Shown here: positions 1 through 54,503 of the stretch, in pieces
How positions within the stretch are numbered: position 1 is the stretch's first letter
Layout of the letters: each line of letters begins with the position of its first letter
Assembly: GCA_015661395.1 (NCBI GenBank)
Contig: JACWML010000004.1
Span: 4,910 to 68,909, forward strand
Length of the DNA stretch: 64,000 nucleotides
Direction: 5' to 3'
From: Methanomicrobia archaeon
GTDB lineage: Archaea > Halobacteriota > Bog-38 > Methanoflorentales > Methanoflorentaceae
Position numbers and translations under genes: made by a program
Notes under the pieces: model-generated
The model's input: only the letters and a program-made list of their open reading frames with translations
Told to the model about the DNA's origin: nothing
Database searches by the model: none

Positions 1-176
1 CAACGATCTTCACTAGAAAAGCAACTCCATCGTCACAGCTCGTTTGATAGATCTCTGCGGTTGTGCCAGCTAGTTCTCGGAACTCACGCGGAAGCCGGAT
101 GATCGGGTAGGCATGAGATGGCTTTGAGCTTTGGATGCTTATCGTGTGCGTGCAGATCGGTTGCATGGACAATAAT
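1..176 (-). CDS. partial CDS (5' end only, continues past the left edge); possible AbrB/SpoVT-like DNA-binding protein
   Basis: My own translation from the ATG at 176-174 stays open to position 1: MQPICTHTISIQSSKPSHAYPIIRLPREFRELAGTTAEIYQTSCDDGVAFLVKIV. It falls below the 60-aa cutoff of the ORF track. Confidence 0.35.
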
Positions 177-348
177 AAGAGACTGAACGGTTAATGATTT
201 GCATTTGCAATCATTCTCCGCTCTTAAAACATGTGGAAGCATTCAAAACGGCAGGATCGGTGAGTTGCGGCAGCGAAGGCACAATTTCCGCATTCGCCGA
301 CAGCGTATATCAAAGGAACGAATAACTCTTCTTGGTTTCGTGCGTTAT

Positions 349-1641
349 TTATGGCAGCAGAGCGCGTAGAGCAGTTACAGCTGATATAGCAGACGTTATC
401 AGAACAAGTCCGGGCTGCAGTGAAGTCCTGAAAGGACTAATTACATTGGCGTCGTATTTTTGCGTGAAAACAACATTTCTTGTCATATTCTTGGTAGCCG
501 GTTTCGCTTCTAGTTCACTCAATATCAGATTGATCGTGTGCGTTCCCGTGTTAGTAAAATGGCAGCTCCAGATTGCTTTCCCACTCGAAAAGTCGTAACT
601 GAAGTACTGTTGTTTCGCTTCATCGTCAAACTCCACGCCTGTAGCTTGAATCTCTGCTTGAAGTAACTCTTTTCGATGTTCAACGCGACTAGACTCATTA
701 AAAAAAAGGTAAAGCAAAAGACTGTGTGAATCACCGACGCGAACTTTTTTCGGCAAGACTGCGAAGATATAATCTACTGGAGATGTAGCAGATTCACGTT
801 CAAATATTGGTGTGAAACGAAATATCACTGTTAGCCGATAGCCTATATACCAAAATATTAGGTATGCGACGATAAAGGACAGGAGTCCAACAGAATTCAC
901 GACGTTAAATAAACCGCTGTACCAGAGAAGACAGAGCAGAACCGTAAAGATTATCAAAAAAAGTAGTAATGTCCCAACCGTCAATCGCCTTAAAATTCTT
1001 TCCAGCCTCATCTCATCGGCTGCCTTACCCAATTTCTTGCTAGTGCGAGCTGATAGCTCGTCTCTTGATTCCGGCGATGGTTCAAAATTTGCCACACCTG
1101 TTACAACAGTGTTAAAAAAGTCTTTTTCAAAATCATGTTGCTCTGTCAAAAGCTCTATTTTTTGCGCCTTTCCACCGATTAAAGGAAGTGCGGTCTGTTT
1201 GCGTTCGAGCGATTCGGATTCCCTTTTAAATTTGTTAAGCACATAGCTCTCAAAATCAAATTCAGAGATCTGTGGGAGGTCTAAAAAAAATGGCAGACCA
1301 CGCGCGTGAAAACTTAAAGCACAAACTTGGGTTTTGGTCAGCAAGTTTCCGAAATAAATGGCTAGTAGCGCAAAAATCACACTGAATACAATGACGAGAG
1401 AGCTTGCAATGTCCTTCAGAGCAATGCCAATCGCTGGTTTGAAAAAAACCATTATGGCTAACAGCACGGGTAACAAAACGGCTAAGATCGAGGCTTGCCA
1501 AAAAAGATGGCTAAGTCGCATTCTTAAGCGGTAATGTTCAGTCCTAATTGCTTCAAGTTCTTTAGCTATTTCTAATTCAGACTGATTACGGAAATTGTCG
1601 ACGTTGTCCTCATTAGGTCTTTGTGTCGGGTCTTTGGGCAT
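349..1641 (-). CDS. hypothetical multi-pass membrane protein (430 aa)
   Basis: Long ORF with a charged N-terminus. Two clusters of hydrophobic helices (ILAVLLPVLLAIMVFF, LVIVFSVIFALLAIYF; LLLFLIIFTVLLCLLWY, FIVAYLIFWYIGY) are separated by a charged soluble segment. A soluble C-terminal region of about 130 aa follows. No family recognised. Confidence 0.6.
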   Translation of the reverse strand: MPKDPTQRPNEDNVDNFRNQSELEIAKELEAIRTEHYRLRMRLSHLFWQASILAVLLPVLLAIMVFFKPAIGIALKDIASSLVIVFSVIFALLAIYFGNLLTKTQVCALSFHARGLPFFLDLPQISEFDFESYVLNKFKRESESLERKQTALPLIGGKAQKIELLTEQHDFEKDFFNTVVTGVANFEPSPESRDELSARTSKKLGKAADEMRLERILRRLTVGTLLLFLIIFTVLLCLLWYSGLFNVVNSVGLLSFIVAYLIFWYIGYRLTVIFRFTPIFERESATSPVDYIFAVLPKKVRVGDSHSLLLYLFFNESSRVEHRKELLQAEIQATGVEFDDEAKQQYFSYDFSSGKAIWSCHFTNTGTHTINLILSELEAKPATKNMTRNVVFTQKYDANVISPFRTSLQPGLVLITSAISAVTALRALLP

Positions 1642-1728
1642 TCGTTCCTTCCAAACGTTTTGAGTATGCGCCTTTCACTTAAATGCTTTCACCCTTTCTG
1701 TTCAATCTATATTGATTGAGAATACTAA

Positions 1729-1881
1729 TCGATTTTCCACATTCTCTACGTTGGGATTGGCGTTGCGGTCGCCTACGGGTACCGCATTCACGTGGAAGAG
1801 AAGCTTTTAACTGCAGAACTCGGCGAAGCATATGTGTCGTACGCGCGCAAGACGAAACGGCTTATTCCCTACGTGATCTGA
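1729..1881 (+). pseudogene. 3' remnant of an isoprenylcysteine carboxyl methyltransferase (ICMT/PEMT) family gene
   Basis: My own translation, SIFHILYVGIGVAVAYGYRIHVEEKLLTAELGEAYVSYARKTKRLIPYVI*, matches the typical C-terminus of this family (RIxxEExxLxxxxGxxYxxYxxxxxRLIP). The frame is closed upstream by TAA at 1726-1728. There is no start codon and only about 50 codons. Confidence 0.55.
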
Positions 1882-2083
1882 CGGAGTCTGAGCAATGAAC
1901 TACTTGTGAAAGCTATATCCTGCCAGTATCGTATTTATACGTAATATGCGTGCTCAGGCAGCGGATGCCAATAATTGCTCTATTCGACGCCCAGCCGGCT
2001 GACAGCCGTGGAGATCAAATCTAAACCCATATATAGCGTTACTTCTTAACGTTTAACGACTTAAGCAAAAGGGAGGTGACGCA

Positions 2084-2377
2084 ATGGGCGAAATAAAAAC
2101 GATCACAAAGGTTCCGGTTGGGGCCGTCGCCTTGATGGGTGCCGCAATTGAAGCCGTTTTAGGGCTTATCTTTGGAATCATTGCAGCTATAGGCATTGGA
2201 GTTGGCGTCTCGACGTTCTCTAGTTCAGTTGCTGGGGGAGCGGTCGGTGCAGTTGTCGCTATTGTCGGCGGCGTTGTCGGCGGCTTCATTGGCGGCTACA
2301 TTATAACAGCAATCATAGCACTGATCTACAATTGGTTAGCACCTAGAATTGGCGGCATTAAGCTTGAACTTGAGTGA
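2084..2377 (+). CDS. small glycine/alanine-rich membrane protein (97 aa)
   Basis: ORF preceded by a strong Shine-Dalgarno-like sequence, aagggaggtgacgcaATG. It has glycine-zipper-like hydrophobic stretches (GIGVGV, GGAVGAVVAIVGGVVGGFIGG). Confidence 0.65.
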   Translation: MGEIKTITKVPVGAVALMGAAIEAVLGLIFGIIAAIGIGVGVSTFSSSVAGGAVGAVVAIVGGVVGGFIGGYIITAIIALIYNWLAPRIGGIKLELE

Positions 2378-2420
2378 CGGCAAAGCATACGGAATCGCGT
2401 AAATCGTAGAGTTCTGACGT

Positions 2421-2457
2421 TAAACGCATAGCGTTTATCGTTACTTTTTTGTTTTTT
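2421..2457 (+). terminator. hairpin plus oligo-T terminator candidate
   Basis: Stem taaacgc-ata-gcgttta (2421-2437) is followed by ttactttttt gtttttt, downstream of the 2084-2377 ORF. Confidence 0.45.
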
Positions 2458-2901
2458 AAGACAACTGCCAGTAGCCGTGCCGGTTCGTTCTTTATAAAAC
2501 AAAAGCCACAGTGCTAAAGAACGTCTCGCGTTTCATTTTGACGAAAGGAGTGATTGGCGAAGCCAGTTCCCGAATTTCTCAAAATCCCTTAGTTAGGCCG
2601 TGAAAATGTCACTCGCTTAGTATCGCCTGCTCCTTCTTCACGAGAGACTCTAGACACCGCGCAGACCACCTTGCTTGCCGAAAAACGTGTCTGCTTAGAG
2701 TTTAAGCGTATGCCAGCAACGGGTTGAATCCTTACTCTAACAGGTCTCACTGTGAGGGTTCGATCCCTCCCTATATTGCATATAAACGTCAAAAACGTGC
2801 TCAGGCGGCTGGGCTTGAAGTCATGAAAAGAGCATGCAGCCCAGTGCAAAAAGCAGTTGCTCCTGCTGAGGTGTAGGTTGTTGTTGCTTATGATCGAAGC
2901 G

Positions 2902-3699
2902 TTAAGGAGTGGCTCCATTTATGGATACCCCTTTTTTCGCCCTTAAATAATTCTTTTGAATCACGCTTGTATTGCCTCTTAGCAACACGGGGTAGAGGCT
3001 GAAGTGCTTCGCACATCTGTCAACGTTTGCGTCAAAGTCTGGCTCATAGGAAAGACCTGTATCCACTTTGGCGATCTTCTTAAATCGTGCATGCTTCATT
3101 AACGTGAAGTCCTCGCTTAGATCTTGCCACTGAGCAGCAACCATGGGCGTCAAAAACAGCATGATGTTGTTGTTGGTGAGCCCGTTTGCATATGCCTGAT
3201 TCCCACCGAGCGCAAGGGCGATGCAGTCATCAACCGTTGCCCCATTGTCGTCAGCGAGGAAGAAAAGTTGACATGTACTGCCGTTGAAATCGTGCTCAAG
3301 AGTCCTAAGGGCGTCACAAATCCCATAGAGCACAAAGATCCCGTCTGAAAAGTCTGACATGCGCTCGATCTGGTGATATACCTCTTGCTTAAGGAGCTTG
3401 CTATCGATATGAAGCCTCAACGGAAGAGCGTAGACAACGACAGCAAGATCGTCTACGCTTCGACGGCGAAGCAGCTGCTGAAGAACGCCATGTCTTTTTG
3501 TCAAATGTCCGCCGGAATGCGCCCCCTGTCGATGCTTCTTAACGAGATTAAAGGCCCCTTCAAAATCCTTAATAAGAAAAGGGCGGTTCTGTGATCGTAG
3601 TTTTCGTGCTAGCTCCTGCTGTTCTGTGCTGTCAACGATAACAAGCTGCTTGACGTCGTCGTCATCGGCAAGAATAGAGGTAAGCTCATCTTCGAGCAT
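2902..3699 (-). CDS. hypothetical protein, possibly DUF1638-like
   Basis: 265-aa ORF. The segments DGIFVLYGICDAL and VDDCIALALGGNQAY resemble the YGxCG / DCIxxxLGSxxxY pattern I recall for DUF1638. This assignment is weak. Confidence 0.5.
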   Translation of the reverse strand: MLEDELTSILADDDDVKQLVIVDSTEQQELARKLRSQNRPFLIKDFEGAFNLVKKHRQGAHSGGHLTKRHGVLQQLLRRRSVDDLAVVVYALPLRLHIDSKLLKQEVYHQIERMSDFSDGIFVLYGICDALRTLEHDFNGSTCQLFFLADDNGATVDDCIALALGGNQAYANGLTNNNIMLFLTPMVAAQWQDLSEDFTLMKHARFKKIAKVDTGLSYEPDFDANVDRCAKHFSLYPVLLRGNTSVIQKNYLRAKKGVSINGATP

Positions 3700-3830
3700 T
3701 CTACATGAAATGATACTTAAGATGGGAATGTGGCGTCACCTTATGAACACTACTTTTTTTCCAATACTTCATATAAGCATCATACACGTTTTCAGGCAAG
3801 GGATGCTTGTAATGCTTCCAGTCGATTCCA

Positions 3831-4250
3831 CTATGGAAGAAGCTTCTCCCTGCTGATGAGTTTACTTGAAAAGACAAACAGCGCGATCGCCAGAGCGGCG
3901 ATGACGACGGCTTCAGCGAGATCTACCACGACTACTGCGATAAAAGGCAGAGTCCACGGGGTTAAGTACGCGGGCACCACCAGCAACCCCCCCAAGGCGA
4001 GGCCTAACGGCTGATTTGCCCCCGCTCTCGGCTTTTGCAATGAGCTGAACGTCATCATAGCCATCGTATCGAAAGACACGAGGGAGAGGGACAAAGCGGC
4101 GGCAATGGCCGATGCCTCGAGAGGGACGGTGAGGTCTCCTCTCAGAATTAGTCCTACCGCAACATTTGCAACGGCCACCGCTCTCACAAGGAGTGAGACG
4201 AGAATGACCCCCGCTTTAAGGTAGCGCTTGAAGATGTCTCCTTGATTCAT
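3831..4250 (-). CDS. hypothetical membrane protein (139 aa)
   Basis: ORF with 3-4 hydrophobic helices. No family recognised. It sits at the left edge of the GC-richer segment. Confidence 0.5.
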   Translation of the reverse strand: MNQGDIFKRYLKAGVILVSLLVRAVAVANVAVGLILRGDLTVPLEASAIAAALSLSLVSFDTMAMMTFSSLQKPRAGANQPLGLALGGLLVVPAYLTPWTLPFIAVVVVDLAEAVVIAALAIALFVFSSKLISREKLLP

Positions 4251-4579
4251 CCCGAGCGAGAGGAAATACTCAGCGCTGATGAGTGGAGCGCGCTGAAATC
4301 GCAGCTAGGGTTGCCGTGAGGTATCATACGCGCGTTGGCAGCACGACGGCTGCGTGAGTGAGCAGGAAATTGGCCGACGTAACTAGTGTTTGTCCGAGGT
4401 TGCCGACACTTAATGTTACATTATGCAATCCCTTCTCGTCACTCTAAGTGGGGTGGCTTTCCAACGTCTTGGCTCCGCTTTCATTATCCGTAGATTGCGC
4501 GGGAATCAACATAATGGGTACGGAGAATCCCTACCATCAGGTTATCAGTGGGGATGAGAAACACAGGCCAGGTGATGCA

Positions 4580-4918
4580 ATGAGTGAATACGAAACTATC
4601 CTCAAGGATATCGAAGAGACCTTTGGCATTGTTCCGGGCTTCATGAAAGCACTTCCTCAAGAGGTGCTTGTGCACGACTGGCCGTTGTGGAAGAAATACA
4701 CCTTAGAGCAAACGGCCATTCCCGGCAAGTATCGCGAGCTGGGCGGATTGGCAGTCGCGGCGAACATAAAGTGCCCGTATTGCCAGTTGATGCATACGGC
4801 AATGGCCCAGTTCCACGGCGCGACGCAGGAAGAGCTGGCTGAGGAGTACTACCTCGCAAGCCTTACCGCGCGGCAGATGCGCTGCTTTGCAATAGTTCGA
4901 TCAGCCTGCTTATGCTAG
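4580..4918 (+). CDS. carboxymuconolactone decarboxylase (AhpD-like) family protein
   Basis: MSEYETILKDIEETFGIVPGFMKALP...KCPYCQLMHTA shows the typical CMD-family N-terminus and CxxC motif. The start was moved from the track's 4448 to the internal ATG at 4580; an ATG at 4514 is also possible. Confidence 0.7.
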   Translation: MSEYETILKDIEETFGIVPGFMKALPQEVLVHDWPLWKKYTLEQTAIPGKYRELGGLAVAANIKCPYCQLMHTAMAQFHGATQEELAEEYYLASLTARQMRCFAIVRSACLC

Positions 4919-5414
4919 TCGACGTGTGCAGCCGTGCGTACGCCGTCGAGTAGCGGCGCCCCGTATAGACAAGGCCGATGGCATAGATCACAATTACGGC
5001 AATTGTTACCGGCCACAAGACATATGCGACAACCGCGACGAAGAAGGCGAGAATCAAGAGAGCGATTGCGGAGATGGCAGCGAGGAGGATGCCGCGATGA
5101 AACATGGCCGACAGCATGCGCTTCAGCGCACCCAACGGCCGACGCCACGCATCTCGCCGAGATTTCCGCTTGATGAACGTTTCAGCCTGCGCGAGTGTGT
5201 CAGCACGCGTGCCTTGCGTATTGTCTGTGCCGCCAAGCTGCGCACCGCATTTTCGACAGAACTTCGCACGAGAGTCTGATGGCGTTCCACACGTTGAGCA
5301 CGCAATATGCGAGGATGATGGAACTGCAGCGCTACTACTCTGCGTATTGCAAATAAGGCACGTGAGCGTATTGTTGTTGAGACGACCGCCGCAGTTGGGG
5401 CAAAACCGCTTCAT
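4863..5414 (-). CDS. double zinc-ribbon protein with C-terminal transmembrane helices
   Basis: Two zinc ribbons, CPNCGGRL...CLICNT and CSTCGT...CRKCGAQL, followed by the hydrophobic stretch ILLAAISAIALLILAFFVAVVAYVLWPVTIAVIVIYAIGLV. Confidence 0.6.
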   Translation of the reverse strand: MKRFCPNCGGRLNNNTLTCLICNTQSSSAAVPSSSHIACSTCGTPSDSRAKFCRKCGAQLGGTDNTQGTRADTLAQAETFIKRKSRRDAWRRPLGALKRMLSAMFHRGILLAAISAIALLILAFFVAVVAYVLWPVTIAVIVIYAIGLVYTGRRYSTAYARLHTSTSISRLIELLQSSASAAR

Positions 5415-5524
5415 GAAGCACGAGTTCCGCTTTTTCGAGTACAGGATTTATCAAGCTCAAAAATGAAAAAGCTTGCGATCTCAGATCTGCTCATGTTTGG
5501 TCGTTCCCTACAGCTTGAACACTC

Positions 5525-6206
5525 TCAAGACGCAGAACCTGCGCTCCACAGACCGAGGTGCTCTTGCTGCGCCTGTAATTGAGCGTCGTAAAACAGCCCC
5601 TCACAAGATACGTCGGGTTTATACGGCGTTGCCCTCGCGTACCCCTCTCGCACGAGTTCGTAGTTCACGAGCACGTTTTCCACAAACACGAAGCGCAGCA
5701 ATCGCCCGTAGCGGTCGGTTTCAGAGACGTCTTTGACAAGGGTCACTGGCTTGCCCGCGACGAGCTCCGTCCCGTGTGGTGGCTTCAGGGCCAAGCCACT
5801 CTTTCTTTGTTGTATCCTCAGGGGCGTTCATACCGATGTACCGCACCTTGTAATCCGTGCCGTTAATGAGCACGTGAATCGTGTCCCCATCAATGACCTT
5901 CGTGACCACCCCGACTGAAGTGCTCGCCGGCGTTTCGTGGATACACGGGAAGCTCGTTGCAGCGGTGAGCGGGACAGACGGCATCGGCGTGGCCGTGCTT
6001 CGAGGAGCTGTCGTCGGCGTGGGTGAAGGGTGCACGCTCGTGGCGCCCCCGTGTGCGCCACTCGCAACGGACGCTGTCGGAACCTCCGATGGTGCGTTTG
6101 TTGCCTGAATCGTGGTGTTACCCACTCGCTGATCGGTGCATCCGCAGACAGAAATAATGAGTGCTACTGCAATTATCGCGTAAAAAGCGGGCCTGATGCC
6201 CTTCAT
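5525..6206 (-). pseudogene. thermonuclease (staphylococcal nuclease/SNase-like) lipoprotein gene interrupted by a frameshift
   Basis: Two overlapping minus-strand ORFs in different frames. The 5' ORF has a signal peptide plus a Cys lipobox-like site (IISVCGCTD) and VVTKVIDGDTIHVLINGTDYKVRYIGMNAPE. The 3' ORF has ELVAGKPVTLVKDVSETDRYGRLLRFVFVENVLVNYELVREGYA...HLGLWS. Together they make one SNase domain. The frame switch is near 5765-5795. Confidence 0.7.
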
Positions 6207-6587
6207 GAATTTAAAGAGAGCGGGGGATGGCTTATAACGTTTTTCCTTTAGCTGCGACCCTTTTTGCTGGAGCCGGGTATCTAACAGAATCCGGAGCGCC
6301 TAATTTCGACGGTGCTTTTCTTGCGGCGAGTTATATCACTCCTGACGACTAGTATGCCAGATTATGCAGTGGCACGCGGCCAAGCAAGAGTTTTCAAGCA
6401 GCTGACCGCCTTAGTTGTGCGTGTCCCAAGTGCCTGTCGTACATAACCTCCCCCCTCACTTCAACCGCCGGCTGGTGATTGAAATCACCGCAACTTTTCT
6501 GAAGAGAACAAGCCGACCGTGTGGGCCTTTCGTGGCTTCGAGTTTGAAGCCGCTATTCCAGCGGGCAGCAGTTTTTTACAAAAAGCG

Positions 6588-6615
6588 GAGCCCAATTTGG
6601 CGAGCCCAATTTGGC
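6588..6615. repeat. perfect tandem direct repeat, 2 x 14 bp (gagcccaatttggc)
   Basis: Read directly: gagcccaatttggc at 6588-6601 and again at 6602-6615, in the non-coding region upstream of the terminase genes. Confidence 0.9.
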
Positions 6616-6831
6616 GTTATCGCGCAGTCTGGTTTATATAGGACGGTTAGATAGCGTTCTGTATTGATTCATAATAGGAGTAGCATGACACAAAATCTGA
6701 ATACGAGGTCGGTTACGATCGACAAACTTGTTGTTCCCTCGCGCTGGCCCACAGAGATCCAAGGGCTCGGTCTCGACGGAACGCGTTTCGAAAGAACAGG
6801 GGTGGACAGATTAAGGAGAGGCGGTTGGTAA

Positions 6832-7140
6832 ATGTCCCCCTACGCAGACCCCCAACAACGTCGCGAATACGACAAAGAACGCAAGCAGAAGCAGCGTTCC
6901 CAGGGGCGGACAAAAAAAAGGGAGGATACACGTCCAACCGAACTTGAAATCAAGAACGCTGAAGATCTGCGCGGCCTATTCAACGAGGTTGTCACCGACG
7001 CGCGAAACGCCGATGGCACTTCACTCCCGCTTGAGGCCAAGTTGCGAATCAAGTTACGCGCCGTGGAAATCGGCCTCCGGGTCATTGAGATCACGAATCA
7101 CGAGCAACGCATAGCCGCGCTCGAGGAGCAATCAAAATGA
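6832..7140 (+). CDS. small basic coiled-coil protein, candidate terminase small subunit / DNA-binding partner of TerL
   Basis: 102-aa ORF with a basic N-terminus (PYADPQQRREYDKERKQKQRSQGRTKKRED). Its stop overlaps the terminase large subunit start in ATGA (7137-7140). The function is inferred from position only. Confidence 0.4.
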   Translation: MSPYADPQQRREYDKERKQKQRSQGRTKKREDTRPTELEIKNAEDLRGLFNEVVTDARNADGTSLPLEAKLRIKLRAVEIGLRVIEITNHEQRIAALEEQSK

Positions 7141-8957
7141 GCCAACACGAATCGAGAATCAAGAACCTCGAAGCTGACCGTACGAGCAACGCCACGAGTG
7201 AGACGGAGATTCCGCGTGATTCCGTGGCGTTCGCCAGGTTGTTGCATATAGAGCCCGATCCCTGGCAGTGTGACCTCCTCACCTCGAACGAGCCGCGCGT
7301 TATCCTCAACTGCGGACGTCAGACGGGCAAATCGACGATCGTCGCTATCCTCGCGCTTCACCACGCGCTCACTAATCGCAACGCGGTAGTGCTCATCCTC
7401 GCGAAGTCGCAGCGGCAGTCAGAGGAGCTCTTGCGAAAGGTCGTTACCTTCTTTCACCAGCTTGGAGAGCCTGGTGGCAGCCGAGGCGAATCCGCCACTG
7501 CGCTCGAACTCAACAACGGCAGCCGGGTCTTAGCCCTGCCCGGCTCAGAAGAGACGACTCGGGGATACAGCGCGTCGCTGCTCCTTATTGACGAGGCCGC
7601 GCAGGTTTCCGATGCGCTATATCATTCGTCCACGCCCATGCTTGCGGCTTCAAACGGGCGGCTGATCCTTCTGAGCACGCCGCGCGGCAAGCAGGGCGTA
7701 TTCTACCGCACGTGGAACGAGGGCCAAGGGTGGAAGAAGATTACCGTGCCTGCTGAAGGGTGCCCCCGCATCACAAAGGAGTTTCTCGACGACGAACGGC
7801 GCACCATGGGCGAGTCGTGGTTCCGCCAGGAGTACTGCTGTGAGTTTACGCAGGAGCAGGGGGCGATCTTCAATGAAGCCTGGGTGCAGCTCTACGTTCC
7901 GGGGCAGCTTCCACCGATGGACGTGGTCATCCAGTCGTGGGACACCGCCCTTAAAGCGTCGGCGACGTCAGATTATGTCGTAGTGCAGGTGTGGGGCCGC
8001 TCAGGCGACGATTATTACCTCCTCGACCAGGTGCGCCGTAAAATGGACTTTGACCAAACAGTGGAGGCGATCAGACGTATGTCAGAGCTGTGGCCCCAAA
8101 CAACGGCGATCCTCGTGGAATCTCAGACGCTCGGGGACGCGATCGCGTCGCACGTTCAAGACGAGATCGAAGGCATCACCTCCGTTCCTGTGCGGGGGAA
8201 CAAGGAGCGCCGCGCCTGGAACTGTGTTCCATTATGGAGGCTGAATCGCGTGTGGCTTCCTACTCCGGATGGCGATCAGTACAAATGGATACACGAGTAT
8301 TTGCAAGAGCTCCTGAACTTCCCTGACGCGGCGTACGACGACCAGGTGGACGCCACGACCTTGGCCCTCAACCACCTGCGGGGGAAACTGTTTCCGAGCG
8401 CACAGCAACACGTCGCTCGCGTGCGCACCCAACCCATCGCGGGCCGTTACTACAATCTCGCATGGGTTCCCGCGCACCTCGACCAACACGGGGCTGTCTT
8501 GGCGCTCGATATGAAAACCTATGACGTCGTATTCCTTGAGACGCTTCTTCCGAGTGCCGTTCGGCACCAGCTCGCCACGGTTGCAGCGATTTCGCGCTCC
8601 TATAACGACGCGGTCGTGTTCGCGGTTCGCGGCTACGACGAGGGGATGTTGCGCGCCCTCGACGATGGGGGAACGTGGGTTGAACGAGTTACGTTCACCG
8701 CGGATATGTGGCAAGCGGCCTATGAGAACCTGGACTTGCTCCTCCGCAACGGGAAGGTCCGCTATCCCGCGTATTCGCAACTTATGGCCGAACTCGACGC
8801 GTTTGCATTCTCGAACTCCAGGAGCGGCAAGCCCGAATATCCGCGGCACCCGACCGTACAGGCGCTCTGTTTACTGACGTACGACTTGAGCCCACGCCCT
8901 GATTTTCTAGACAATGTTTACTCCAATCATGATCTTGATGATCTTGGCTTGTTTTAG
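7137..8957 (+). CDS. terL: phage/virus-type terminase large subunit (ATPase plus RNase H-like nuclease) with a C-terminal extension of about 190 aa
   Basis: Walker A is NCGRQTGKST and Walker B is SLLLIDEAAQV. The nuclease domain reads VIQSWDTALKASATSDYVVVQVWG...YYLLD...ILVESQTLG...FPDAAYDDQVDATTLALNHL, typical of Terminase_6-type TerL. Confidence 0.8.
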   Translation: MSQHESRIKNLEADRTSNATSETEIPRDSVAFARLLHIEPDPWQCDLLTSNEPRVILNCGRQTGKSTIVAILALHHALTNRNAVVLILAKSQRQSEELLRKVVTFFHQLGEPGGSRGESATALELNNGSRVLALPGSEETTRGYSASLLLIDEAAQVSDALYHSSTPMLAASNGRLILLSTPRGKQGVFYRTWNEGQGWKKITVPAEGCPRITKEFLDDERRTMGESWFRQEYCCEFTQEQGAIFNEAWVQLYVPGQLPPMDVVIQSWDTALKASATSDYVVVQVWGRSGDDYYLLDQVRRKMDFDQTVEAIRRMSELWPQTTAILVESQTLGDAIASHVQDEIEGITSVPVRGNKERRAWNCVPLWRLNRVWLPTPDGDQYKWIHEYLQELLNFPDAAYDDQVDATTLALNHLRGKLFPSAQQHVARVRTQPIAGRYYNLAWVPAHLDQHGAVLALDMKTYDVVFLETLLPSAVRHQLATVAAISRSYNDAVVFAVRGYDEGMLRALDDGGTWVERVTFTADMWQAAYENLDLLLRNGKVRYPAYSQLMAELDAFAFSNSRSGKPEYPRHPTVQALCLLTYDLSPRPDFLDNVYSNHDLDDLGLF

Positions 8958-9273
8958 TAAGCTCAAAGTCCTCACAGGCTCTCAGAAATCTGGCACGCAC
9001 ACCGGCCCGGTGCTGTGCAAAAGCACAGACCCGTTTCAACGAGTCCTCCGCAGTCGCATTGAGCTGTCACGCGCAGAGCACGCTTGCGTTGCCGAACGCA
9101 TGCTCGCGCCCACATCGGGTTACAAGCGCTCAAAAAGAATACGTGGTCGACCTGAGCCTGACAGCTCACGATGTGGGTGTCTCTTATAACTAAGAAGTCG
9201 GAGAGCCTCCCTCGCGCTACACAGGGACTCGTTGAAATGACGACAACGTTCTAATCAATGGCACTGAAAACAG

Positions 9274-9320
9274 TGGGCTCGGCCGGATTCGAACCGGCGA
9301 CCTCTGCCGTGCGAAGACGG
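9274..9320 (-). other. isolated tRNA 3' half (anticodon-loop region to discriminator) with no 5' half; att-site remnant candidate
   Basis: The minus strand reads ttcgcac-GGCAG-aggtc-GCCGG-TTCGAAT-CCGGC-CGAGCCC-A. The T-arm is perfect and the 3' acceptor strand is present. The matching 5' acceptor GGGCTCG and D-arm are absent from the adjacent 100 nt. Confidence 0.6.
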
Positions 9321-9324
9321 AGGA

Positions 9325-9369
9325 TTTGGTGCGTGGGGTGCGGTTTTGGTGCGGGTACGAGAGCGCACC
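9325..9369. repeat. cluster of GGTGCG repeats (3 direct, 1 inverted) next to the tRNA fragment
   Basis: GGTGCG occurs at 9328-9333, 9337-9342 and 9348-9353. TTTGGTGCG is repeated at 9325-9333 and 9345-9353, 20 nt apart. An inverted copy, gcgcacc, is at 9363-9369. Confidence 0.8.
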
Positions 9370-9445
9370 ATCAGTGATTCCGCAGACGCCGATAGATGCT
9401 TAGAAGTAATGTAAAGGCAATCAGCTAGCACGTTTAGAGATAACC

Positions 9446-10141
9446 ATGGTTAGTGCGAGGAAAGGGGAGCTTGTCGTGCAGCGACTCGAGTCGCTGTTCG
9501 GCAACGTCACCTTCGATGACGATTATTGGCGGGAACAAAACGAGCCGTTTTGGCTAATCGCAGAGACGATCCTGTCCCAAAATACCACCTCCGCGAATTC
9601 GAGGGCGGCCTTTCGGAGTCTTTTTTTATCATATCAAACCGTTGAGGCCGTTTCTTTGGCAGGCGTGCAAGACGTAGAGCGCGCAATCAAGCAGGCGGGG
9701 TTGTACGAGGCCAAGGCGAGAAGCATAAGCGCGGTGGCACGTGAGGTAATGGAGACCTACAACGGCGATACGTGGTCCTTCATCGGTGGCAGCTATCAGT
9801 CTGCGAGAGAACGGCTCCAGAACGTCACCGGCATTGGGCCGAAAACAGCAGATGTAGTCCTCGTTTTTGCCCGCGACTTTGACATCATCCCCGTCGACAC
9901 ACACGTGTTCAGAGTGTCGCGGCGCATCGGGCTGGCTCCGCTGAAAGGAGGTTATGATGCAGTTAAGATGGCTTTAGAAGACGAAATACCGCCTGGAAAA
10001 CGAAAGTTCGCCCATATCGCCCTGATCAGATTAGGCAGAGAAATATGCGTCGCGCGGGGGCCGCGGCACTGGAAGTGCCCGCTTACGGATTTGTGTGACT
10101 ACTACCAAGCGACGTCTTGCGACGCCAGTCACACTTGTTAA
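9446..10141 (+). CDS. nth: endonuclease III / HhH-GPD DNA glycosylase
   Basis: ILSQNTTSANS, a helix-hairpin-helix (GIGPKTADVVL) and a catalytic region (IPVDTHVFRVSRRIGL). A C-terminal Cys cluster (CVARGPRHWKCPLTDLC) fits a 4Fe-4S centre. Confidence 0.8.
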   Translation: MVSARKGELVVQRLESLFGNVTFDDDYWREQNEPFWLIAETILSQNTTSANSRAAFRSLFLSYQTVEAVSLAGVQDVERAIKQAGLYEAKARSISAVAREVMETYNGDTWSFIGGSYQSARERLQNVTGIGPKTADVVLVFARDFDIIPVDTHVFRVSRRIGLAPLKGGYDAVKMALEDEIPPGKRKFAHIALIRLGREICVARGPRHWKCPLTDLCDYYQATSCDASHTC

Positions 10142-10144
10142 GGT

Positions 10145-12049
10145 TTACAGAAATCGGACTGTTTCAAGATTCATTGGGCTTCTGGTTTCAATCTTGAATT
10201 TCTTGTATATGGTGCTCGCCAGATCGATGCATTTGTTTTCCTCGCCGTGGCTTGTGACGATCTTTTCCGGCCGGGGGTTTAGCCGCTTGACGTATTCAAT
10301 TAGCTGTTGTCGGTCTGAGTGCCCGGAGAATCCATCAACCGTCTCGACATTCATGTTCATTTGCATGGTGGCAGTTTTGCCGTTGTTTGACATCGGCAGC
10401 TCTTTCCACCCTTTCTGTATGCGCCGCCCGAGCGTCCCTTCTCCTTGATACCCTACAAAGACTAGGGTATTATTCGGCTGTGGCCCGAGCGCTTTCAGAT
10501 ATTCCATTACGGGGCCACTGTTGAGCATGCCTGAGGTGGCGAGAATTACACACGGTTCGCCCCGCACAATGTCGTCGCGCATGTTTTGCTCTACCTGCAC
10601 GAAACTGTCTGAGAGAAACGGATTCATGCCCTCGTGAAATATCATGTTTCTCAGGTCATTATTGAGGTACTCGGGATACGTCGTATGAATAGCAGTTGCC
10701 TCCCAGATCATGCCGTCGAGGTACACGGGTATCTCGTCAATTATCTTCTTGCGAATCCCCTCCTCGAGAACGATCATAACCTCTTGGCTTCGTCCCACCG
10801 CGAATGCCGGTATGAGTACTTTGCCGCCCTTTGACAGCGTTTGGCGTATGATAGAGTACAGCTTGTTTTCAGCCTCTCGTCTCGACGGCGTTTGGTCGTG
10901 CGGTCCCCCATAGGTCGCCTCCATTATCAACGCCTCGAGCCTTGGAAAGCTATTAACTGCTGCGTCAAACAGCCTGGTTTGTTCGTACTTGAAGTCTCCA
11001 GTGAAAGCGACGTTGTAGAGCCCCTCTCCCACGTGAAAGTGGGCTATCGATGACCCGAGGATGTGTCCCGCATTGTGGAACGTCAGTCGCACGTCGGGGG
11101 CTATATCGGTAACTCCGCCATAGTTCAATGCAATCGAGTGTTTTATGACTTCCCGTATCTTAGCTGAATCGTAGGGGATCTTACGGCCTTCGCGGGCCGC
11201 CACATCAATGTAGTCGAGTTGCAGAAGCGACATGAGGTCACGCGTTGGCGGCGTGCAGTATATCGGGCCTTCATATCCGTACTTGAATAGGAGCGGGACC
11301 AGGCCTGCGTGATCGAGGTGTGCGTGCGTGACGACAACTGCGTCAATCTGGTCGAGGGGGCTCACTTCAGGCGCGTAAAGATAGGGCGTCGCACTATCCT
11401 CTGATCCTACGTTAACACCGCAGTCGACGAGTATCCTCGATTCAGGCGTCGAGAGCACAAAAGAGGTTCTACCGACTTCACGACATCCGCCGAGAGTAGT
11501 CGCCCGTATCCATTGGTCTTTTGAGGTGATCTCCCGGTGAATCTTTCGGCCCATCGCTTTCAGAAGCTCCTTACGCTCGTCGCTGAAAGAGCGCAAGTAC
11601 TGGCGTATCTCCTTCACAGTAACCGATTCGATCGGAGGGGTTCGTACCACTCGTGGCGTCCACCCTATCTGCTTTGTAATCTCTCGGAGTGTGGCGCCGT
11701 GCCTTCCGATTACAAGTCCCGGTTTTTTGGCCTCAATAACGATCTCACCGGTGTCTAAGTCAAAATAGTGGTTTGTAATACCCGCCTCTTCGGGCACGAT
11801 ATCGCTTATTTCTTCTATTGACTTCTCGGGGTCTGCCAGAACACGAGGATCTGGCCTTACTACTATGCGCTTACGCAGTTCTCGGGCGAGTTTCTTAACT
11901 ATCTCTCCGTTGTCTGCGAACGCGCGAGGATCGTTAGTGTAGATCACGACTTCGGGCCCTTCAAACTCAAGTTCGGTAATCTTGATGTTAGAAGGCAAGC
12001 GTTCTTTGACACGCTGTGTCAACTCAGTAAGAGCTTCTTCAACCGGCAT
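10145..12049 (-). CDS. fttA: archaeal beta-CASP ribonuclease aCPSF1 (transcription termination factor FttA)
   Basis: 634 aa with N-terminal KH domains, a metallo-beta-lactamase HxHxDH motif ([12 protein letters not shown]) and a beta-CASP region. The length and architecture are typical of aCPSF1. Confidence 0.9.
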
Positions 12050-12060
12050 TGTGCGACTTC

Positions 12061-54418: not shown

Positions 54419-54503
54419 GGGCTCGTAACTCAGGGGTAGAGTGCCACGTTCGCATCTCAGGAGAAAGACGTGGATGCCACGGGTTCGATTCCCGTCGAGT
54501 CCA
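54419..54503 (+). tRNA. tRNA-Ala (anticodon CGC) with a 13-nt intron after position 37
   Basis: Hand-folded: GGGCTCG...CGAGTCC-A with the G3:U70 alanine identity pair. The anticodon arm is CCACG-TTCGCA[TCTCAGGAGAAAG]A-CGTGG and the T-arm is ACGGG-TTCGATT-CCCGT. Confidence 0.88.

Follow-up and report, generated by a model that had tools for sequence, protein, structure and literature searches.

The interval bounded by comDE, a fused sulfopyruvate decarboxylase gene, and an endonuclease III-like glycosylase gene serves as an integration hot spot in this uncultured genus of Halobacteriota, and it is anchored by att#1, an orphan copy of the 3'-terminal 47 nt of tRNA-Val(CAC). In the present genome the interval is occupied by a same-orientation stack of leftovers. 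Part of it, positions 3831-9320 of the window (the whole 64,000-nt stretch of DNA that was analysed), had been described in a sequence-only reading as a GC-richer accessory island of about 5.5 kb, possibly a decayed virus-derived insertion. The explanation that fits best overall, and that we hold to be probable with a good deal of doubt remaining, is a composite hot-spot island with a maintained terminase-only cassette, in which 3831-9320 forms part of a patchwork of mobile-element leftovers at a tRNA-Val-derived attachment site.

The hot spot and its attachment sites

att#1 (9274-9320, minus strand) extends from the anticodon arm to the discriminator and was not called as a tRNA by ARAGORN or Rfam. 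A search for the intact parent tRNA located tRNA-Val(CAC) genes on contigs C62 and C53 of the same assembly. att#1 is conserved beside the endonuclease III-like gene in the relatives G009, G010, G012, and G017, and upon alignment the sequences of these genomes part ways directly past the att core. The right boundary that had been placed at the tRNA fragment is therefore a genuine integration junction, and 3831-9320 is accessory DNA, as proposed. Two substitutions in att#1, CAC to CGC in the anticodon and G to A in the stem, are private to this genome and absent from the relatives' copies at the same locus. The remnant of an older small element-end ORF (9321..9431, minus strand), namely its degenerate 3' end, reads into att#1 and is conserved together with it in relatives. 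Beyond it, the conserved chromosome starts on the right with the gene for the endonuclease III-like glycosylase (9446..10141, plus strand), with 82-89% amino acid identity in same-genus relatives and 71% in G007.

At the opposite end, the N-terminal part of a second small element-end ORF (2..172, minus strand) was identified by alignment with copies on contigs C58 and C27; it appears AbrB-like by eye and had no Pfam match. This ORF extends approximately 140 nt to the left of the window start into att#2, which is truncated to the anticodon arm (att homology ends after ...GGCGGAGGT) and is located about 20 nt from the stop codon of comDE, just left of the window. Approximately 15 copies of the att core are present in the assembly, mostly with a small ORF before them and sometimes with a recombinase gene after them; on contigs C91 and C20 this recombinase is full-length. 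The top 24 PDB fold matches of the recombinase, obtained with an AlphaFold model of moderate quality, were all tyrosine recombinases. In G009, a 3.4-kb VIT1/TMEM175 cargo element is located between two att copies, which indicates that an att#1-type site serves as a target.

The tRNA fragment could instead be read as one half of a split, trans-spliced tRNA gene, in a region of ordinary chromosome with a local rise in G+C. Split tRNA genes are present in some archaea and many tRNAs of this genome carry introns, both of which are in keeping with such a reading. It is already contradicted, however, by the intact tRNA-Val(CAC), the mutated anticodon, and the number of fragment copies with their adjoining small ORFs and recombinase genes; furthermore, there is no 5' half or leader, the stem is broken, and the tRNA-Ala(CGC) gene is intact at 54419-54503. 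We consider it extremely improbable.

Composition and contents of the interval

The G+C content of 3831-9320 was 56.2%, compared to 45.4% for positions 1-3830 and 49-50% for the remaining window, so the region is indeed richer in G+C than its flanks. Genome-wide, it ranked at the 91st percentile of same-size windows for G+C (mean 52.2%, sd 3.1%) and at the 74th percentile for tetranucleotide distance, and the rise is thus local and does not mark an outlier. All of the gene content listed previously was present (membrane protein, CMD/AhpD-like protein, zinc-ribbon protein, split SNase, small protein, and TerL), but the region is a mosaic and not one insertion, and the accessory interval comprises the whole 9.5 kb from comDE to the endonuclease III-like gene. 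Homology falls into distinct blocks: 6219-9326 corresponds to the G009 locus, and 3831-4271, 4478-4872, and 5529-6218 each correspond to different loci elsewhere. The same interval measures 4.5 kb in G007, 14 kb in G005, and 17 kb in G010, and its contents differ among genomes (ApeA-HEPN, Mrr, nucleotidyltransferase, PD-(D/E)XK, integrases).

Read from right to left, the stack begins with att#1 and the terminase cassette, continues through an SNase pseudogene, three cargo genes, and three integrase stubs with cargo behind each, and ends in the element-end ORF and att#2 beside comDE. The secreted SNase pseudogene (5525..6206, minus strand) is split over two frames, having lost 2 nt in comparison with a G009 copy of 88% identity; terminase cassettes are also accompanied by an SNase gene in G009:C9 and by a fragment of one in G010. 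Next to it are a zinc-ribbon membrane protein (4863..5414, minus strand), a CMD/AhpD-like cargo gene (4448..4918, plus strand) with homologs at other loci in G014, G003, and G010, and a 139-aa membrane protein (3831..4250, minus strand). The last of these is a copy of a gene on contig C55 (91% nucleotide and 89% amino acid identity) that has no mobile-element neighbours there, and a 441-bp unit carrying it occurs in one or two copies in most genomes of the genus. [quoted passage not shown] Position 3831, where an integrase stub meets a duplicated chromosomal gene, is a junction inside the interval and not the end of an element. Further left are a DUF1638 cargo gene (2902..3699, minus strand), with 82% nucleotide identity to contig C11 of the same assembly and, in the relatives' loci examined, a sole protein match of 46-47% at the G017 nth locus (L014); two further integrase 3'-end stubs (2766..2809 and 1919..1962, both minus strand) that are direct repeats of each other; and a cargo gene for a 430-aa membrane protein (349..1641, minus strand) without a counterpart within the same interval of six relatives.

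The statement that integrase and second att copy are missing needs amendment, as integrase remnants and att#2 exist just outside 3831-9320, although none is intact. No intact integrase and no perfect direct repeat bounding any unit was found in the window, which makes mobility here historical. A viral origin applies to 6219-9273 and not to the genes in 3831-6218, homologs of which are scattered elsewhere in relatives.

The terminase cassette

The terminase cassette (6219..9273, plus strand) is 3.1 kb in length and consists of a 48-aa ORF, a small basic protein, and TerL; together with the following att it shares 88% identity over 3.1 kb with the cassette that G009 has at this locus. Its first part, about 600 bp previously taken as non-coding, has no long ORF but does contain a promoter-like region (6588..6640, plus strand) conserved in related cassettes and the conserved 48-aa ORF (6685..6831, plus strand). 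A 2 x 14 bp tandem repeat is located at 6588-6615; the motif GAGCCCAATTTGGC is doubled only in this genome and single in seven related cassettes, and is followed by TTTATATA at 6633-6640. The 48-aa ORF is open in all eight cassettes of the subgroup, and it ends in a TAA directly joined to the start codon of the following gene (TAAATG). That gene, in the TerS position, encodes a small basic three-helix protein (6832..7140, plus strand) with 156 homolog clusters, all of about 100 aa and 62-94% identical, and without any Pfam, NCBIfam, or PADLOC match. Its fold is not specifically TerS-like, and it is not demonstrably a TerS.

The large terminase subunit, TerL (7137..8957, plus strand, 606 aa), matched Pfam Terminase_6N/6C, PHROG 7579 (E 3e-61), and TIGR01630, and Walker A (GRQTGKS), Walker B (LLLIDEA), and nuclease acidic motifs could be read from its sequence; its assignment to the tailed-virus type holds. 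The spacer between TerL and att (8958..9273) is 93% identical to that of G009 and contains nested inverted repeats (9035-9050/9224-9238 and 9060-9076/9152-9168).

Selection was measured on one orthologous pair, namely this genome and its sister species G009, for which dS in the cassette was 0.23 (TerL) and 0.25 (small protein), in line with the host-gene values of 0.24 (endonuclease III-like gene) and 0.21 (aCPSF1). The omega (dN/dS) of TerL was 0.33 (bootstrap 95% interval 0.25-0.43), with a single, in-frame indel of 3 nt across 1.8 kb. The cassette has been vertically inherited since the G009 split under purifying selection; instead of decaying, the terminase pair has co-diverged with host genes.

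The terminase family across the genus

Terminase_6N was detected in 15 of 18 genomes of the genus, in one to six copies each. About half of some 44 copies across the genus retain open frames of 590-650 aa; some others are broken by truncation or frameshift (C68, G009:C8, and frames of ~260-320 aa). The HK97 major capsid protein and two portal families were found in none of the 18 genomes, a result based on four Pfam models, one without a working control, that divergent archaeal capsid proteins could escape. The neighbourhoods of ~19 related terminase loci contain no portal or capsid gene. The 3' end of TerL faces a tRNA-Val att or a real tRNA-Val gene in 8 of the 16 loci examined, and in the complete genome G017 the true tRNA-Val gene is followed 75 nt downstream by a TerL cassette. 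The TerLs found at the endonuclease III locus do not form one clade (the G012 TerL groups with G009:C9, SH-aLRT 97), and the TerL tree indicates that cassettes have been exchanged among att sites.

These data bear on three further explanations. One decayed provirus at a tRNA gene, with integrase, capsid, portal, and second att eroded, would account for the tailed-virus type of TerL, the tRNA fragment at the right end, and the SNase pseudogene. This is very unlikely: it is already contradicted by the block structure, the left edge is the integrase stub of a neighbouring remnant, purifying selection acts on both genes of the terminase pair, whose dS matches that of host genes, and random erosion would not always yield loci without virion genes.

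The cassette may also be an inert relic that hitch-hikes beside a conserved att, its frames intact because little time has passed. Partner virion genes were not found, some family members are broken, and NitKor-E1 has been read as a likely relic (Krupovic et al. 2019, PMC6563490). Nevertheless, the upper bootstrap bound of omega at a dS of 0.23, the one in-frame indel, the promoter-like region and 48-aa ORF conserved in eight cassettes, and the proportion of open frames among the genus-wide copies argue against it, and we give it a small chance.

About equally doubtful is host domestication of the cassette, whether for vesicle or gene-transfer-agent-like packaging or as a decoy terminase that aborts tailed-virus packaging. 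The vertical co-divergence with host genes and the purifying selection seen at this chromosomal locus, and the defence genes that the island carries in relatives, would agree with it; PADLOC returned no matches, however, there is no capsid gene cluster to form a gene-transfer agent, and three of the 18 genomes lack the cassette. Variable copy number (0 to 6) and exchange among att sites are better suited to a selfish element than to a fixed host function.

Proposed mechanism

For the composite island with a maintained cassette, we infer that elements with the same 47 nt as attP insert via a divergent tyrosine recombinase into tRNA-Val or into orphan att copies from earlier insertions. Newer insertions would displace older ones inward, and integrases would be lost by deletions. 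The cassette, without an integrase of its own, may be moved in trans by resident integrases or by homologous exchange, the latter presumably anchored on the conserved small-protein gene and att. Speculatively, the terminase may be kept for packaging DNA into the capsids of a putative tailed virus, in the manner of a satellite. Counted against the composite-island explanation as a whole were the mutated att#1 and truncated att#2 of this genome, and the fact that neither a helper virus nor an excised circle or an empty site was seen.

Comparison with known systems

The nuclease domain of TerL scored 61.7 bits against TIGR01630 (psiM2_ORF9), above the cut-off of 41.65, and in this respect resembles the large terminase of methanogen tailed viruses. 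In psiM2-type viruses TerL is part of a complete virion module, whereas here it stands alone, outside any such module. Phage satellites (PICI and relatives) are similar in being small integrated units with packaging genes but without a full virion module. Such satellites rely on a helper virus and carry their own integrase, replication, and regulatory genes, usually with TerS rather than TerL; the cassette has no integrase, replication or regulatory genes, recognisable TerS, or known helper. We know of no archaeal satellite of the PICI-like kind.

The SSV-type 'suicidal' integrase elements of Sulfolobales and Thermococcales target tRNA genes, have an ORF through att, occur in arrays, and give rise to rearrangements (Badel et al. 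2021, PMC8371274). Targeting, read-through ORF, and arrays are shared with the present locus, but the small ORF was never fused to a recombinase in 153 representative homologs, and Phage_integr_3, which is typical of suicidal integrases, had no match. Tycheposons of Prochlorococcus are flanked by partial tRNAs, serial integrations at one tRNA drive earlier arrivals deeper into the island, degenerate remains, among them broken integrases and additional partial tRNAs, are strewn across the islands, and some members are satellite-like with a packaging gene (Hackl et al., bioRxiv 10.1101/2020.12.28.424599). Partial-tRNA flanks, stacked integrations, and leftovers of integrase and att are common to both; tycheposons, however, are bacterial, use different recombinases, and in their satellite-like forms carry TerS or capsid protein and not TerL.

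The closest precedent of the orphan terminase is NitKor-E1 of Thaumarchaeota, an integrated element of Ca. Nitrosopumilus koreensis AR1 in which TerS and TerL are the only virus-like genes, the others being a typical mobile-element set (PD-(D/E)XK nuclease, toxin-antitoxin, tyrosine integrase), and the terminase of which was considered enigmatic, a probable relic (Krupovic et al. 2019, PMC6563490). Both have terminase genes without other virus-like genes in a mobile-element setting. The cassette described here differs in being multi-copy, in abutting a tRNA-Val att without its own integrase, in having an upstream protein unrecognisable as TerS, and in its measured purifying selection and site exchange.

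Genomic setting and base composition

The window occupies bases 4910-68909 of contig C26, in an assembly of 2.16 Mb comprising 102 contigs with 52.0% G+C. The closest public genomes are MAGs, most of them from the Microflora Danica soil survey, which carry the NCBI labels 'Euryarchaeota archaeon' or 'Halobacteriota archaeon'. Immediately beyond the left end of the window is comDE, a fused sulfopyruvate decarboxylase gene whose product scored above the cut-offs of both TIGR03845 and TIGR03846, and right of the island are a gene for an endonuclease III-like glycosylase (nth, 9446-10141) and aCPSF1. The sequence-only reading had described 3831-9320 as a GC-richer island, which was borne out locally, with 56.2% G+C versus 45.4% in positions 1-3830 and 49-50% in the remaining window, but proved modest genome-wide, at the 91st percentile of all same-size genome windows for G+C and the 74th percentile, on the same basis, for tetranucleotide distance. 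The rise in G+C is real locally and insufficient by itself to mark the region out, and at these percentiles composition is weak proof of foreign origin. The gene list given for the island was correct, including the frameshift in the secreted nuclease (SNase), which has lost 2 nt in comparison with a copy in a sister species that is 88% identical to it. PADLOC returned no matches for the island proteins, and their interpretation as a defence system was rejected.

A tRNA-Val fragment as attachment site

Read on the minus strand, 9320-9274 (att#1) contains the anticodon arm, variable loop, T-arm, 3' acceptor strand, and discriminator of tRNA-Val(CAC). The fragment was not called by ARAGORN or Rfam, and Rfam over 3500-9700 yielded a single sub-threshold chance match, due to the T-arm. 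A search of the genome for an intact tRNA containing the fragment identified tRNA-Val(CAC) genes on contigs C62 and C53 of the same assembly. Substitutions absent from the same-locus copies of relatives change the anticodon of att#1 from CAC to CGC and, by a G to A replacement, break its anticodon stem; the intact genes and the mutated fragment together rule out a split or permuted tRNA gene. About 15 copies of the tRNA-Val 3' part are present in the assembly, most of them preceded by an ORF of about 100 aa that reads into the fragment; the copies on contigs C91 and C20 have a 430-aa ORF after them. Elsewhere in the window, ARAGORN assigned a four-base anticodon to 54419-54503, which by eye is a tRNA-Ala(CGC) with G3:U70 and an intron 3' of the anticodon loop.

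A truncated second copy, att#2, lies left of the window in the same orientation as att#1 (minus). It breaks off after the anticodon arm, at a distance of about 20 nt from the stop codon of comDE, and is entered by a small minus-strand ORF (2-172) within which the window starts. The attachment site is the 3' part of a tRNA gene, directly repeated at element ends, and its occupancy differs among related genomes, as in an array of tRNA-targeting elements.

The right boundary of the island at the tRNA fragment is a genuine junction, as had been proposed. In four related genomes (G009, G010, G012, and G017) the fragment and the same degenerate upstream remnant adjoin the endonuclease III-like gene, and divergence among these sequences sets in directly past the att core. 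What remains of the last ORF of an older element makes up the 110 nt right of att#1 (9321-9431). Integration into the 3' part of a tRNA gene gives, in the direction of the tRNA, the order tRNA or att, element, att. The 3' end of att#1 points leftward into the island, so that whatever lies left of 9274 occupies the place of an inserted element. G009 shows that the orphan fragment serves as a target: there, a 3.4-kb element with VIT1 and TMEM175-like genes sits between two att copies, with the small ORF at its far end.

The interval between comDE and nth measures 4.5 kb in G007, 9.5 kb in this genome, 14 kb in G005, and 17 kb in G010. Its flanking genes share 82-99% protein identity with those of same-genus relatives, G007 being the most distant with 71% for nth, and its contents vary by genome, including ApeA-HEPN, Mrr, nucleotidyltransferase, PD-(D/E)XK, HD and ICMT proteins, and integrases. 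The locus shows an orphan tRNA fragment persisting across species as an attachment site, one that gathers defence and cargo genes in an uncultured soil Halobacteriota lineage.

Mosaic structure and integrase remnants

The island is a mosaic that reaches further left than 3831, and the sequence-only proposal of a single insertion at 3831-9320 had to be abandoned; integrase remnants and a second att copy, which that reading did not see, lie just outside its coordinates. Three integrase 3'-end stubs, all on the minus strand, are located at 3744-3832, 2766-2809, and 1919-1962. [quoted passage not shown] They are the only recombinase sequences in the window; full-length genes follow att on C91, on C20, and in G010. 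The left edge at 3831 is the junction of the 3744-3832 stub with a 441-bp unit that is 91% identical to a gene on contig C55 of the same assembly, which has no mobile-element neighbours. The closest relatives of the genes in 3831-6218 are found at differing loci in other genomes, and the genes of 349-3699 are missing from the corresponding intervals of relatives.

Such stubs (50-90 nt) recur often: the assembly has at least 12 (including on contigs C46, C70, C76, C81, and C93), and another lies at positions 6090-6142 of locus L015. Their breakpoints are concentrated in a stretch of about 5 codons immediately upstream of the putative catalytic tyrosine, and four stubs have the same upstream junction sequence (agcctaatacaggctcc...), which suggests a recurrent, possibly site-specific event. 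A T-arm-like motif at 2745-2770 (GAGGGTTCGATCCCTCC) abuts the 2766-2809 stub and may be the remnant of another tRNA-derived att. At the tRNA-Val locus of G017 (L020, approximately 2842-3174 and 11986-12059), a small element-end ORF with a partial att on the plus strand is inverted relative to the tRNA-Val gene. Between that gene and the inverted att are the terminase cassette, the Pfam-confirmed herA-nurA genes, and two ORFs adjoining herA-nurA that are mre11- and rad50-like by eye; the arrangement could be the product of an att-mediated inversion.

The putative recombinase

The 430-aa protein had no Pfam match, and a profile search against PDB sequences was empty. A model of moderate quality (36 homologs, mean pLDDT 60) gave tyrosine recombinases as all of its top 24 fold matches, at E values of about 1e-3, including the Tn1549 and lambda integrases, archaeal XerA, and Cre, and several homologs are annotated as integrase by JGI. 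The insertions would have been catalysed by this protein.

Archaeal recombinases with att inside the gene have been reviewed by Badel et al. 2021 (PMC8371274). An SSV-type suicidal integrase splits at att into int(N) and int(C) on integration; this reading was rejected here, no fusion of the small ORF to the recombinase having been found. An exhaustive HMMER search for a protein joining the two, with the small ORF as int(N), gave none: among 153 representative small-ORF homologs no fusion to a recombinase was found, and all were 50-254 aa in length except one of 1141 aa, in which the match covered only query residues 2-24 and was not a recombinase fusion. Reading frames through att differ among copies. 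For proteins P0123 and P0172 and the G010 integrase, gene callers place the start at an ATG inside the tRNA sequence (MTSPSHGGGRRF...), and the ORF is thus open through att, which leaves the rejection of the split-integrase reading unchanged.

The terminase cassette

The right part of the island is a terminase cassette (6219-9273, plus strand), and the G009 cassette at the corresponding locus matches 6219-9326 with 88% identity across 3.1 kb. The call of a large terminase (TerL, 7137-8957) was confirmed by Terminase_6N and 6C domains, PHROG 7579 (E 3e-61), and a TIGR01630 score above cut-off, and the Walker A, Walker B, and acidic nuclease motifs are readable directly in the sequence. Its proposed TerS-like partner, a small basic protein (6832-7140), has as its sole TerS-like feature a position upstream of TerL with an overlapping start. 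It belongs to no Pfam, PHROG, or NCBIfam family, and its model (pLDDT 77) consists of three helices with fold matches to generic helical hairpins at E >0.2, so that a TerS assignment by fold is unsupported.

The cassette also contains a GAGCCCAATTTGGC motif, a TATA-like box (6633-6640), and a 316-nt spacer between TerL and att (8958-9273). The tandem repeat in the 6588-6640 region is a duplication of 14 bp private to this genome; the duplicated motif is single and conserved about 25 nt upstream of the TATA-like box in seven related cassettes. Although the GAGCCCA of this 2 x 14 bp repeat resembles the att 3' end, a role as second att copy was rejected because the motif is single-copy and conserved in related cassettes. 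An ORF of 48 aa (6685-6831) is open in eight of eight cassettes, and its stop codon directly joins the ATG of the following gene (TAAATG). The spacer is 93% identical to that of G009, above the conservation of the surrounding coding DNA; it contains nested inverted repeats, and its folding is stabler than that of shuffled sequences (z -3.1 on the plus strand).

Selection and exchange

Relative to G009, dS was 0.23 for TerL and 0.25 for the small protein, and 0.24 and 0.21 for the host genes nth and aCPSF1; the cassette dS matches the host-gene dS, and the cassette therefore diverged together with the host. Omega was 0.33 for TerL (bootstrap 95% interval 0.25-0.43), 0.31 for the small protein, and 0.23 for nth, and TerL has a single indel, an in-frame one of 3 nt. 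Judged by these substitution patterns, the cassette lacks the signature of a decaying pseudogene, which argues against the earlier view of a decayed insertion as far as the cassette is concerned.

TerL phylogeny does not unite the genes of the endonuclease III locus in one clade. G012 pairs with a second G009 copy, on contig C9 (SH-aLRT 97), G010 falls within that well-supported group, and this genome and G009 form a separate long branch. Of 16 loci examined, 8 have an opposite-strand att within 75-600 nt that the 3' end of TerL faces; among these att sites is the genuine tRNA-Val(CAC) gene of G017, a complete genome. The cassette may have moved in trans or via homologous exchange.

The terminase family and virion genes

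About 19 terminase loci of the genus were compared, together with one IMG/VR contig and two JGI contigs. They have just two genes in common, those for the small basic protein (71-93% identity) and for TerL (42-85%); a subgroup of cassettes also has the 48-aa ORF and the promoter-like region with the TATA-like box. Terminase_6N is present in 15 of 18 genomes in 1-6 copies each, about half of which are open frames of 590-650 aa. TerL genes at loci L068 (G017:C1:888000-904000) and L077 (G014:C125) are divergent (34-40% identity), with a different upstream gene of about 160 aa, HTH/zinc-type by eye, and no portal or capsid neighbours; this organisation therefore represents a second type of orphan terminase pair in the genus. 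The best non-archaeal TerL relatives are in soil bacteria (L021, L024, and L036, from Gemmataceae, Planctomycetota, and Nevskia soli; 45-51% identity over the ATPase domain). These few inspected loci are small contexts without obvious virion genes, and at some soil-bacterial TerL loci an ORF with a P-loop-like motif precedes the gene and a conserved ORF follows it.

The proposed absence of capsid and portal genes from the island held more widely, none of either type being found in the window or at the approximately 19 related loci. The portal families PF04860 and PF05133 were absent from all 18 genomes, with controls working (PF06074 was uninformative), as was the HK97-fold capsid family PF05065, a single Pfam model that divergent capsid proteins could escape. 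Of the genes that identify a Caudoviricetes provirus, the large terminase is present, and the portal and HK97-fold capsid were not found. Chromosomal head and tail genes accompanying the terminase, as in a gene transfer agent, were likewise not found, and the gene set of a PICI-like satellite (integrase, replication, and regulator genes plus packaging redirection) is not represented in the cassette, which consists of packaging genes only. IMG/VR yielded no complete virus; att and two TerL genes are present together on a contig of 7.8 kb, and in one related contig TerL is paired with a primase-polymerase.

Interpretation and comparison with known systems

The cassette could be a new archaeal mobile unit, a terminase-only satellite at a tRNA-Val att without integrase or capsid, moved by resident recombinases or flank homology and spreading by packaging itself into the capsids of an unseen tailed virus; we put this forward as a speculative and rather unlikely reading. 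Under it, the terminase would package DNA into the capsids of a helper. Tailed proviruses are customarily called from TerL as the marker, which in this genus would yield dozens of false calls. A terminase-only family under purifying selection makes the role of an orphan terminase directly testable.

Orphan terminase pairs occur elsewhere, as two further types in the genus and in NitKor-E1 of Thaumarchaeota, and TerL homologs of Planctomycetota and Acidobacteriota lie in small contexts without capsid genes, which hints that the class is widespread. NitKor-E1 was described as an integrated thaumarchaeal element with only TerS and TerL, its terminase being considered enigmatic and probably a relic, and a terminase complex was stated to be so far unidentified in non-viral mobile elements (Krupovic et al. 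2019, PMC6563490). Islands built by repeated integration at tRNA genes leave partial tRNAs and fragmented integrases (Hackl et al., bioRxiv 10.1101/2020.12.28.424599). The locus analysed here combines this island-building pattern with a terminase-only cassette and adds evidence for maintenance by selection: whereas the lone terminase of NitKor-E1 was read as a relic, the present cassettes form a family that appears to be under purifying selection during chromosomal residence.
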